Assembly (NCBI GenBank): GCA_951406725.2
Contig: OX597819.1
Coordinates: 103,912,001 to 103,976,000 of the forward strand
Reading direction: 5' to 3'
DNA from: Octopus vulgaris
Lineage: Eukaryota
DNA: 64,000 bases
Shown: positions 565-60,466 of the stretch, one piece after another
Position numbering within the stretch: position 1 is the stretch's first letter
Layout: each line of letters opens with the position of its first letter
Made by a program: the position numbers and the translations under genes
The notes under the pieces: model-generated
Databases searched by the model: none
Told to the model about the DNA's origin: nothing
What the model saw: the letters and a program-made list of their open reading frames with translations, nothing else

Positions 565-656
565 ACGCCTTGTTATATTAAAAAGATGTGCTGAACAAGA
601 TAAGAACAATGCGTGCGTAAAATTCTTCAACAAAATCGCTGAGAATAACTGTCAAC
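565..656 (+). CDS. Gene 1 exon, type [31 protein letters not shown]
   Basis: ccag|a...c|gtgag, 92 nt, phase 2->1. Confidence 0.9.
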
Positions 657-3600
657 GTGAGAAACTTTTTAATTAATTGCATCTTATTTGAAAAGGTATT
701 GCATTGATGAACTATATTCTGAATAGAAATTATTTTATTAAGTATTTTTTCGTGTTCATATCCCAGATGTATCGATTTTTCATTCAAATGAATTTAAAAT
801 TTCAGAAAACAAATATAGTAAATAATGATTTACTTTCGACTCTAAAACTCCTGTTAGCTGTAGCGGCCATGTTCCAGAGCCCTTCTACGCTAATGATTTT
901 CTTGTCTATTCCTTGATGTTATGATTCTATCTTTTTCTGTTTTCGCTCCTTCTTTGAATTCCTGTCACATTCGATTGAAGAATGTACTTTGAAAGTCTAC
1001 TGGACTATTTTGATATTACCAACATCATATACCCCAACTACAAAACATAATATAGAAAACTATATAAAATGATACCAAAACTGGAAAACGAACATATCAA
1101 TAAACCTGGAAAACTTGTAGGCTATGACAATTATAATTATTTTTGAATCCAACTAATCACCATCGTTTGCTCTGCGCATAAATCGCAATACCCTATACAC
1201 AATATCTATTGCGTCAAACCATGTATTGTAGATTACAAATGATAACATATATTAAGATCAGATTCATATGTTTTAATTTGTATTGTATGAGGTAATCTTT
1301 CCCGAAACTTTGAAGATTATTCATGTTATAATGAAATAATATGTTAAATCTGCATATGTTGCAGCGGTCGACAATTGCACAAATTCCTTCAAAACAAGTT
1401 GCCCTGAAGCTGAAAAAGTCTATCCCATATGGAACCCAGACGCGGATTACTGCGAGTAAATATATTACTTTACTGATCTTACATTTATTGTTACATGGAA
1501 TTTTTACATGTTTATAGTTTTAATCATACAACTAACTGTTAATTACATTGGTTTGTTGGAGTGTATTGGATTCAGTTAGAAACAGAAATTGATTGTTGCT
1601 AAAATACGCCGATCTAAAAATGATGCATATCGACAACAATCTGACTAATCAACGTTTAATCAATTAAGAATTATATGGTTAATTGCATATATTGGCAAAA
1701 GTTTACAAATGTGCACCTTAAACAAATAGTTCTTTAACAATTCCCGGCAATTTTCATAGATAAAATGTTATGCTTTATAAAACTAATGAGAACGTCTCAT
1801 CATTAAAAACGTGCTTCTCAGAATTTTGTTATGCATACGCACACAAATACGATTAATAAGCATTTTTCGTAGTTTTTCATTCTAATTATTCACTTTTAAA
1901 CATAATTTTCCGCGAAATGCACCAGTATTTTTAAAATTCAATCTTCATAGCCCGATGTTAGAAATCGGGTTGAAAATTATAGTTTATCACTTGGTAAGAA
2001 ATGTCTATCCAAGAAATATATCAGCATGTGAACAAAATAAATATTACAAGATATTTAAAACCAGTACTATGTTTATGAAACCTAACGAAATTAATCTTAA
2101 TACCTGAATAATCGAAAACGTTGCCAAATTTTCATGTTTAAAATGCATTTAGTTTCTAATTTTTATATTCTAGTCGTTTGCGCGTATATCAAATATGTGC
2201 TACTACAAAGAAAGACAAGTGCAAACAACACTTTAACGAACTATTTCGCGCAATATGTGTAGGTAGGAGGCTTTTTTCTAAATTTTGTTTTTCATAATGA
2301 CAGAAATGACGCAACCTGTAAAATAGTAGATGTGGTCTACCACTTATCCCATCCATGTGTCTTTTATGCTTTGCAGATGGATAGAAACATTCAAACACTT
2401 TATTCTCTAATACTTAAACAAATATATGATAATGATGGCGACGATGAGATTGCTAAATAGACTGGATGGGAATTGAGTGATAGGATCAACATTAGCTTTT
2501 GATTCTTCTTAAGCATATACAATGTACGAAATTTTTTTTTACCAGCTGTGTTAGTTTTGGTGATGGTCTTGTTGACTGCTGTCTGGTTTGTCAGTAGAAC
2601 GGAACGATTCATTAATAAATAGATATGTGTAAATATCTCTCATTCTAAATAAAAGAAGCTCAGAAACACGATTTTCTTGTTTAGTTCCATGTAAGCCTCA
2701 TCTAGACAAATGGCTAAAGAGTTTGTAGTTCTGATCGTAATATTGCTTTTTTGTCTATCAGGGACTACATTGTCCAATATTACCAGCCAATTTTAAGACA
2801 ATACAGTGAGATTTCTTAGGGATTTAGCTGCCATTTCTAGACATTTCAGCAGCTACTTAAAGTCACATTTCTTGACTACTAACTGAGTATATAAATTAAT
2901 AATTTCTGTTCTTTCGACCAGGATAAGCTGATAGTCAACCCAAAGACAATAAATTAGTTGTAAAACTCCTCATATCGGGTCATGTTTCATTACAAACAAG
3001 ATCAAGCAATGATTCACTTGGTGTGTATGTGTGTGTGTGTGTGTGTGTGTGTGTGTGTGTGTGTGTGTGACTGAGGTAGGACTGAAGTTTTTTGTGCAGC
3101 CATAAATGATGTACGATGAGTGATGCAACTGGCATACCGGTTTCTTCACGATCTTCTGGCTATGCTTTTGAAGTTCATGGAAAATTCGTTTGCTTATGAT
3201 TTATAAAATGGGGTTGGTAGGACATATCTTTGTAATATTGGTTTCTGGAAAGTACACGTAAAATGCATTTTGATATTGACTGTTATGAATTTAGAATGGA
3301 CGAGCGGTTTGCTATTGAATACTTCATATTTGGAAGCTAACAAAATGTTCAAAGTTTGCTATTGTAGCAGAAATGTTACAGTAGTTTTCTGATGTCATTT
3401 TCTGATGTAAGTGGCGTAGCTTTCATTTCTTAATGCTTATGATCATGAAAATATTAATCAAACTATTTGGAAATATCAGTATGGGTAACAGCAGCCTCAC
3501 TATATATTATTATTAGCAATATCATTACAACTGTAGGTAACATACTTTATCAGATACTTTTCCAAAAGAAAACACAACAATTACATACAGATAACACACT

Positions 3601-59600: not shown

Positions 59601-60466
59601 TAGAGTGCCAAGAAAAGCTTTACCGAACTTGTTCTGTCTGCTAAAGAAAATAAATTCCTACTAGAATTAAAATCTTTAATTTATGCTGAATTGTATGATA
59701 TTTTTTCAATATGGTAAAATTTTGGAAGAGTGAAGAAACAAAGTATCTAATTTCTAGGACTTGCAACGGCGAACGACTGCACTGACCTATACAATTCAAG
59801 ATGTCCCAAAATAATACTCCAGAACCCCGTACATAATCCAGACACTCGCTACTGCACGTATATATATATTTTTACATTTCTTTATATTATTCTACACGTA
59901 ATATCTACATTTATTTTATATGTACAGTAATATCAACTGCTTAATACTAATATTGTTAGGTTGAAACAAACCTAGAAATATTTACTCAGTGTAGTATTCT
60001 AATAGTGTACTGTCATCGTTCGGTTCAATACCGGACTGTAATTGAACATGTTTCGATGCAATAATGTGAAAACACTCACAATTGACTGCTAGATAATTTA
60101 ATATATTATATAGCTGATTTCTAACATAGGTAAGAGTCAGAACACCAATCTACTGATTTACATTTATTACAAATCATTATACCCATTCTGGAATATAAAT
60201 GTTAAATTAGGCAGCTTTGAACTCAGAATATTAGCATGCATATACAGCCAAACAATTAAAGCTTTTATTAACCCTTGTAGAATTTTAATTCACTATGTAA
60301 ATAATGCAGAATATTGCCAAAAATGTTAAACATTTTTTACATTCTGAAAGCCATGTTTATTGATATACTTTATATTTCAGTCGTTTGGTCTCATATCAAA
60401 GATGCGCTAATGCAGGTGAAAAGTGCGGAGATTACTTCAAGCAAACCTTTCACGATCAATGCTGTG
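53593..60466 (+). CDS. Gene 2 (3'-partial, spliced): secreted paralogue, MKACICICLLIAGLATA-NDCTDLYNSRCPKIILQNPVHNPDTRYCTRLVSYQRCANAGEKCGDYFKQTFHDQCC...
   Basis: Exons 53593-53629, 59758-59857 and 60381-60466 join in frame; signal peptide with A-x-A site followed by the same six-Cys domain; open donor at 60467 implies continuation. Confidence 0.82.
54060..56858 (-). mobile_element. Decayed Gypsy/Ty3 LTR retrotransposon lacking recognisable RT, in the gene 2 intron
   Basis: Similar LTR-like blocks ~54110-54278 and ~56706-56858; PBS-like tggcaacgagg (~56677-56687) and PPT gaaaaggggaga (~54279-54290) on minus strand; protease LQLDTSSDISII; integrase HSGNPEMSRMK...VYW, PWSRAHIDYAGP. Confidence 0.85.
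54814..55046 (+). mobile_element. tRNA-derived SINE (family 1) nested in the Gypsy remnant
   Basis: Near-identical to the first half of 23561-23952. Confidence 0.85.
56950..58300 (-). mobile_element. 3' part of a restriction-like-endonuclease non-LTR element (R4/Dong-like), decayed
   Basis: CRLCG...ITPVLRSCPKM...RHD knuckle in ORF 57276-57587 followed by PD-type nuclease remnants. Confidence 0.7.
58420..58620 (+). mobile_element. Short RTE-like RT fragment
   Basis: GFRLWCVLSPPLFIFFM resembles GVRQGCVLSPLLFIIFM. Confidence 0.6.
59758..59857 (+). CDS. Gene 2 exon, type B long: (G)LATANDCTDLYNSRCPKIILQNPVHNPDTRYC
   Basis: ttctag|ga...ac|gtatat, 100 nt, phase 1->2. Confidence 0.88.
60381..60466 (+). 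CDS. Gene 2 exon, type A variant: RLVSYQRCANAGEKCGDYFKQTFHDQCC
   Basis: tttcag|t...g|gtaaga, 86 nt, phase 2->1. Confidence 0.88.

Follow-up and report, generated by a model that had tools for sequence, protein, structure and literature searches.

Two-exon modules of a six-cysteine domain form a two-locus family of predicted secreted and anchored proteins in Octopus

A stretch of 64,000 nucleotides from the Octopus vulgaris genome (assembly GCA_951406725.2, contig OX597819.1, positions 103,912,001 to 103,976,000; hereafter the window) harbors the greater part of one gene and the beginning of another, both composed of tandem copies of a small domain with six cysteines. We found that each copy, or bead, is encoded by a pair of mini-exons, and that the family extends beyond the cluster represented by the window (C6) to a second cluster elsewhere in the genome (C18). 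The domain and the family appear undescribed; lineage-specific clusters of small disulfide-rich secreted or anchored proteins are already known in general. As to function, we consider it quite possible, if short of probable, that these proteins are many-armed binders, acting through avidity, of outside partners that change rapidly, the likeliest being microbes or parasites.

A six-frame scan of the window, complemented with a splice-site check, identified 14 exons of type A (91-100 nt, phase 1 to phase 2), which encode C-x7-C-x16-C stretches, and 15 exons of type B (86-92 nt, phase 2 to phase 1), which encode R-x6-C-x6..8-C-x11-C stretches. All 29 are located on the plus strand, alternate strictly between A and B from 565 to 60466 and have AG/GT borders. 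The splice-aware form of the pattern matched 14 A and 15 B exons on the plus strand, nothing on the minus strand and nothing in any of 100 local shuffles of the window, ruling out chance or a repeat artefact as the source of these exons. The remaining matches of the cysteine pattern in the six-frame scan are mostly translations of TG/CA microsatellites. Since several A exons offer a choice of in-frame AGs, their 5' ends were picked using pyrimidine tracts and homologs. Exon alignments revealed invariant positions: Cys, Pro and Asp for type A, and Arg, Cys and Ala for type B. When spliced, the 27 exons of gene 1 lying inside the window yield 836 residues with 81 cysteines and no stops, and the linkers between Cys6 and the next Cys1 are 5-9 residues long. 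Thus, the preliminary description of this DNA, which spoke of 29 mini-exons of 86-100 nt encoding about 14.5 domain copies, of some 840 residues and 81 cysteines in gene 1 and of very short linkers, is borne out on each of these counts. The bead is a two-exon module entered and left in phase 1, and therefore could be duplicated freely; such duplication has taken place both within and between genes.

The features of the window are given below; they were established by the splice-site check unless a line says otherwise, and P numbers denote database proteins.

565..656, plus strand, gene 1 domain 3 exon B; its exon A is found 843-942 nt before the window start
1365..1455, plus strand, gene 1 domain 4 exon A
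2174..2262, plus strand, gene 1 domain 4 exon B
4044..4143, plus strand, gene 1 domain 5 exon A
5014..5105, plus strand, gene 1 domain 5 exon B
5648..5738, plus strand, gene 1 domain 6 exon A; also in P0002 and P0003
7800..7888, plus strand, gene 1 domain 6 exon B; also in P0003
8596..8686, plus strand, gene 1 domain 7 exon A; domain modelled via P0003
10085..10173, plus strand, gene 1 domain 7 exon B; also in P0003
15101..15200, plus strand, gene 1 domain 8 exon A
16141..16232, plus strand, gene 1 domain 8 exon B
16416..16506, plus strand, gene 1 domain 9 exon A
17485..17576, plus strand, gene 1 domain 9 exon B
20952..21045, plus strand, gene 1 domain 10 exon A
21684..21775, plus strand, gene 1 domain 10 exon B
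21977..22067, plus strand, gene 1 domain 11 exon A
23008..23099, plus strand, gene 1 domain 11 exon B
27346..27445, plus strand, gene 1 domain 12 exon A
28140..28231, plus strand, gene 1 domain 12 exon B
28377..28467, plus strand, gene 1 domain 13 exon A; donor joined to 29237 in the run X1 contig
29237..29325, plus strand, gene 1 domain 13 exon B; acceptor joined in the run X1 contig
29999..30098, plus strand, gene 1 domain 14 exon A
30844..30935, plus strand, gene 1 domain 14 exon B
31867..31960, plus strand, gene 1 domain 15 exon A
32360..32451, plus strand, gene 1 domain 15 exon B
38909..39008, plus strand, gene 1 domain 16 exon A
42229..42320, plus strand, gene 1 domain 16 exon B
45716..45860, plus strand, likely terminal exon of gene 1, inferred from an 8-residue non-hydrophobic tail, a stop and AATAAA at 45781 and 45840; its acceptor is joint-best between 42400 and 53500
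53593..53629, plus strand, gene 2 first coding exon, with ATG and hydrophobic core of the predicted signal peptide and a phase-1 donor; matches the start of P0001
59758..59857, plus strand, gene 2 domain 1 exon A, which also encodes the end of the signal peptide
60381..60466, plus strand, gene 2 domain 1 exon B; 8 further domains extend to about 38 kb beyond the window end

The extent of the genes and of the family was established from 690 kb of stretches out of the 2.8-Gb genome. In full, gene 1 begins with a signal exon 11.9 kb before the window and comprises 16 domains, giving 1,014 residues with 98 cysteines. Gene 2 begins at 53593 and encodes 9 domains in at least 570 residues; exons downstream of the window rule out the one-domain protein that the window by itself would suggest. 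At the N-termini of both, Met-Lys is followed by a hydrophobic core and by small residues ahead of the first domain, a signal peptide as predicted by eye; this had been proposed previously for gene 2 and now applies to gene 1 as well. After the last domain of gene 1, no terminal exon combines a hydrophobic stretch with a good acceptor, apart from one weak candidate just before gene 2, and the C-terminal ends of P0001 and P0018 have no hydrophobic tail. Two further paralogs are found 0.6-0.7 Mb from the window, on the minus strand at C6:104.62-104.74 Mb: a third gene, with at least 10 domains, and a degenerate fourth (C6:104,627,000-104,656,000), with scattered exons, two A exons without the third cysteine and several partners gone; it is likely a pseudogene. 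Domains 1-7 are reciprocal best matches, in collinear order, across gene 1, gene 2 and P0018, and so bead identity has been kept among paralogs. Within gene 1, the pair of domains 8-9 has been repeated.

The second cluster, at C18:15.4-17.3 Mb (sampled at some of its listed places), features one- to two-domain forms with tails resembling glycosylphosphatidylinositol (GPI) attachment signals. At C18:17.16-17.30 Mb we recognized four signal exons, six A exons, eight B exons and four terminal exons with a small-residue site and a hydrophobic tail, as judged by eye; these GPI-like terminal exons lie at C18:17.20-17.29 Mb, and P0005 and P0008 end, again by eye, in similar tails. Another part of the cluster (C18:15,449,000-15,516,000) has A exons in seven near-identical copies as well as six B exons, spaced 6-21 kb apart, with Thr/Ala-rich stretches behind them; at 15,483,449, the copy shows a frame mismatch with its own acceptor. 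Differences among these copies are strongly skewed to nonsynonymous changes. All 13 C18 domains tested score 42-64 bits against a profile made mainly of C6-type domains (plus four from P0005 and P0008). The preliminary description had called the proteins secreted, and the signal exons of genes 1 and 2 agree with this; however, the one- to two-domain genes of C18 with their GPI-like tails do not fit so simple a label. On the basis of these sequence features, the C6 chains are predicted to be secreted and the C18 members to be GPI-anchored.

Spliced reads across the junctions had been proposed as a check of the gene model, and one such case was found. A contig of run X1 (151 nt, depth 2) places its letters 1-77 on 28391-28467 and 78-151 on 29237-29310, reproducing a predicted junction exactly. 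In the stretch compared (26340-30110) this is one of four junctions, and X1, which we take to be RNA by guess as it is not on record as such, covers almost no unique intron sequence. The 28467-29237 intron is traversed by a contig of run X4, and runs X9 and X11, in which the exons have no cover, are uninformative as to expression. In gene models from other octopus species the exons are connected in the same way, and P0003 is 96.4% identical (135/140) to gene 1 domains 6-8; being predictions, such models are no independent proof of expression. The annotation largely misses the family because its exons are tiny: CAI9724703 (P0002) captures 4 of the 29 window exons and then runs into an intron. 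The idea of a hidden cluster thus needs qualification, since most of it has indeed been missed, but parts are already present, as uncharacterized proteins, in public Octopus models (XP_052824892, XP_052824402, XP_052824452, XP_036359395, CAI9724703 and XP_052830408, mostly partial). In P0001 and P0010, the O. bimaculoides models of gene 2, domain 6 has no exon B, whereas the present genome has an intact one (C6:104,003,397); the exon may be skipped or lost in those models, or the annotation may be wrong.

With the exon-A profile, HMMER searched in full over 1.84 billion representative sequences returned nine matches, six of them true homologs, all from Octopus (bimaculoides, vulgaris and sinensis) and all uncharacterized except for one labelled GDNF/GAS1. 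The other three, P0006, P0007 and P0009, are unrelated repeats, as seen from the sequence of P0007 and from the short matched stretches, name or Pfam rows of P0006 and P0009. A further Octopus protein came from two word-based searches. True homologs outside Octopus were found neither with the exon-A profile nor by word searches, which supports the suggestion of a lineage-specific family. The collection includes at least one argonaut protein, but this is a weak test, as the profile has 30 positions and may miss remote relatives in squid, cuttlefish and other molluscs. In the literature searched, which mostly excludes subscription journals, the family is undescribed and six locus identifiers of its members are named in no paper. 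The three other unnamed octopus genes of bioRxiv 10.1101/2022.06.11.495763 do not match the family by any of their descriptions in the accessible portion of that preprint. Searches with accessions and short motifs found nothing in the accessible parts of the supplements of PMC10138644 (skin mucus) and PMC7693380 (salivary gland), a weak negative.

The structural model of a single domain is confident (predicted local distance difference test score, pLDDT, 92.7; predicted template modelling score, pTM, 0.77) and all-alpha, in line with the helical six-cysteine repeat envisaged earlier: a kinked first helix (2-12/15-19), a Pro-rich loop and two further helices (29-40 and 45-59). We infer three internal disulfides per bead. 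For a two-domain model, pLDDT was 76. The cysteines together with core residues (Arg at Cys3+2, present in 52/52 domains, Phe at Cys5+4, present in 46/52, and the Pro..Pro-Asp loop) likely hold this fold. Around the core, the sequence is variable: beads of gene 1 are 13-67% identical to each other, 33% on average. Between species, the likely O. bimaculoides orthologs are 81.8% (440/538, gene 2 versus P0001) and 64.7% (253/391, gene 1 versus P0011) identical, compared to 96.9% (369/381) for RGM used as a control. The ratio of nonsynonymous to synonymous divergence (dN/dS; Nei-Gojobori) between genes 1 and 2, over six of seven collinear domains, is 0.66, or 0.82 without Cys codons, and in nine internal pairs it ranges from 0.58 to 1.58. 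For five pairs of young C18 copies, the corresponding ratio of proportions (pN/pS) is 0.67, undefined (0 synonymous and 9 nonsynonymous changes), 3.9, 4.8 and 8.2. Run X4 differs from the window at 6/472 exon and 22/3,299 intron positions, and four of the six exon changes alter a residue. Taken together, these comparisons point to a fixed scaffold whose surface may be free or positively selected, more clearly so in C18 than in C6.

How could such proteins work? As residues outside the core change fast, each bead would present a different surface. The gene structures show that the C18 cluster retains the simple form, consisting of a signal exon, one or two beads and a GPI-like tail. In the C6 cluster, the bead has been polymerized 9-16 times without a GPI-like tail, and polymerization would provide avidity. 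By analogy with Ly6/uPAR proteins, the anchored forms may bind partners at the cell surface, and the long forms, if soluble and multivalent, may act as agglutinins or decoys. The bead may derive from the RGM N-domain, with BMP binding likely lost. Several observations weigh against this reading as a whole. Fast evolution would fit gamete proteins, venom proteins or relaxed constraint as well, and a fixed structural or signalling role would account just as well for the domain order being conserved across paralogs. Moreover, dN/dS is below 1 for gene 1 versus gene 2 and for six of the nine internal pairs, the C18 pairs are non-independent, with a Fisher test on one of them giving an uncorrected P = 0.047, and the identity control is a single gene (RGM). 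Finally, splicing is seen at just one of the four junctions compared, in a single contig of depth 2, and its run is taken as RNA by guess.

Foremost among the alternatives is a role in reproduction, which we regard as unlikely though worth serious attention. Anchored forms would then mediate recognition at the sperm or egg surface, and long forms would be components of seminal fluid, spermatophores or egg coats under sexual selection. Rapid divergence, the nonsynonymous excess in young copies and the presence of secreted and GPI-like forms side by side all agree with this, and mollusc gamete-recognition proteins such as abalone lysin/VERL are known for fast evolution and tandem repeats. However, VERL repeats are homogenized, whereas the beads diverge yet stay in conserved order. 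An improbable explanation is venom or saliva, with disulfide-rich helical units acting on prey and long forms being polyproteins or multivalent toxins. The beads are small, fast-evolving, six-cysteine units, predicted to be secreted, and in these respects are like many venom peptides. Against it speak the GPI-like tails of many members, the linkers of 5-9 residues, which leave little room for processing sites, and the lack of any toxin-family match over the Pfam cut-off among 15 family proteins.

The beads might also be growth-factor traps derived from RGM and still bind BMP/TGF-beta ligands, with anchored forms as co-receptors and long forms as multivalent sinks; we give this a slim chance. 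The Pfam family RGM_N (PF06535) is the only one recurring in both Pfam scans. Among the 15 family proteins (isoforms among them are non-independent, and P0001-P0003 were scanned to E <= 1), it is over the cut-off in one, P0003 (29.1 versus 24.2 bits, E 1.2e-6, summed over two stretches), below it in eight more (E 1.7e-4 to 3.7) and unlisted in six. At the level of single exons, Pfam gave nothing for the 14 A exons, a chance PHD match for 1 of the 15 B exons and RGM_N for none of the 29. In the PDB profile search with profile A7, RGMB was the sole sequence at E <= 10 (E 0.2), and it also took Foldseek ranks 1-6, none significant, in fold searches that produced no significant match at all. The domain therefore still has no Pfam family of its own, as the term "unrecognized" used for it previously implied, but the RGM_N match and the top structural rank of RGMB make that term too strong. 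Octopus RGM shares the Cys3-x8-Cys4-x7-Cys5 spacing, and the repeat profiles score octopus and argonaut RGM N-domains (RGM-N) at 6.9-11.5 bits, values equalled by 8-64 of 1,000 cysteine-fixed shuffles. Comparison of profiles with RGM-N gave no match, with just 1-3 close sequences on the RGM side. The accessible portions of PMC7354924 and PMC11488336 describe RGM-N as a bundle of three helices containing three disulfides, and RGM proteins as GPI-anchored. The first of these, in the portion accessible, describes a BMP-contact loop after Cys5 with Gly at +2, Leu at +4 and, in human RGMs, His at +7. In the beads, C-x-G-x-[LI] occurs in 0/52, Gly at +2 in 4/52 and His at +7 in 0/52; in C18 domains, C-x-G-x-[LIF] occurs in 2/13 and His in 0/13. 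The canonical octopus RGM is encoded elsewhere (C2:46.68 Mb); its N-domain (L050:1495-1713, minus strand) keeps the loop Gly and Leu and lacks the Arg, Asp and His of human RGMs, the Arg and Asp being absent from argonaut RGM (P0020) too. RGM_C matches none of the 15 family proteins in Pfam. As for ligands, TGF-beta family ligand domains are found at 13 places on C4, C5, C9, C11, C23, C27 and C28, including by eye a BMP2/4-like domain at C11:35.86 Mb; C23 carries two equal-scoring copies, 40 kb apart in opposite orientation.

It is equally doubtful that these are structural matrix or cement proteins (of egg stalk, mucus or sucker cuticle) with beads as stiff cross-linkable spacers and a neutrally drifting surface: the composition (about 10% Cys, 6-6.5% Tyr and 9-10% Lys), the rod-like chain expected from short linkers and the agreement of dN/dS below 1 in older pairs with relaxed constraint are in its favor, but it leaves the single-domain anchored paralogs and the nonsynonymous excess of young copies unexplained, and few thiols would be free if the six cysteines pair within the bead.

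The genes are interspersed with mobile DNA. Judging by eye, open reading frames at 39392-40723 (plus strand, 444 residues), which sits in the domain 16 intron, and at 50156-51088 (minus strand, 311 residues) look like remnants of reverse transcriptases of long interspersed elements, and decayed mariner/Tc1-like transposases are seen at 62780-63810 (plus) and 10726-11145 (minus). Positions 27499-27656 and 29600-29740 are copies of a very high-copy short repeat, likely a short interspersed element, with a depth of tens of thousands in probable RNA runs.

Few lineage-specific effectors are known in octopus immunity, gamete recognition or secretions. The work defines, in a model cephalopod, a gene family at two loci and its domain, both apparently undescribed, and the gene models are concrete enough for RNA sequencing by tissue and tests with recombinant beads. 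A small helical scaffold that is confidently modelled and tolerates about 67% sequence change is relevant to both protein evolution and binder design. If the link to RGM is true, a developmental ligand-binding domain would have been recycled into a polymeric protein family. The most novel scenario, which we consider improbable as a whole, is that octopuses made a variable recognition repertoire out of a BMP-binding module: the N-domain, freed from RGM and without its BMP loop, would have multiplied into dozens of single-bead receptors with GPI anchors and into polyvalent secreted counterparts of 9 to 16 beads, with surfaces under diversifying selection. Were it true, this RGM-derived repertoire would represent a receptor/soluble-multimer pair on a helical scaffold, as yet undescribed for animal immune systems.

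Among known systems, RGM-N (PF06535; human RGMB structures 4uhz, 6z3j and 6z3m) resembles the bead in size (about 60-70 residues), six cysteines, the three helices and extracellular location predicted for the bead, the cysteine core described above and a C-x-x-L-x-x-Y-x-x-C-like pattern. GPI-type anchoring, known for RGM, is likewise predicted for part of the bead family; in contrast to bead proteins, RGM continues after its N-domain with an RGM_C/vWD-like domain containing the GDPH cleavage site. GDNF/GAS1 domains (GFR-alpha, PF02351) come to mind as P0005 carries the UniRef name "GDNF/GAS1 domain-containing protein". They are helical, disulfide-rich, extracellular and often GPI-anchored and repeated, the GFR-alpha domain being larger, with about 10 cysteines; PF02351 is absent from the Pfam results of all 15 family proteins, Pfam returned nothing for P0005 at E <= 10, and GFR-alpha chains do not occur among the fold-search matches listed. 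The nematode DUF19 (T20D4.11-like, PF01579), a small secreted helical Cys-rich domain with lineage-specific expansions, was the top ESM Atlas feature match for two-domain P0003 (0.80, 149/256 features), a level attained in a third of cases by shuffled proteins and below the set threshold of 0.9; PF01579 has no Pfam match in family proteins, and P0005 had no usable ESM Atlas match. The three-finger Ly6/uPAR family is a possible architectural analogue: it is all-beta with 8-10 cysteines, whereas the bead is predicted to be all-alpha with six, and no Ly6 Pfam match was found. Ly6/uPAR genes form tandem clusters of small disulfide-rich modules, each with a signal exon, a domain and a GPI tail, along with secreted and multi-domain variants, in which a fixed scaffold bears a variable surface.

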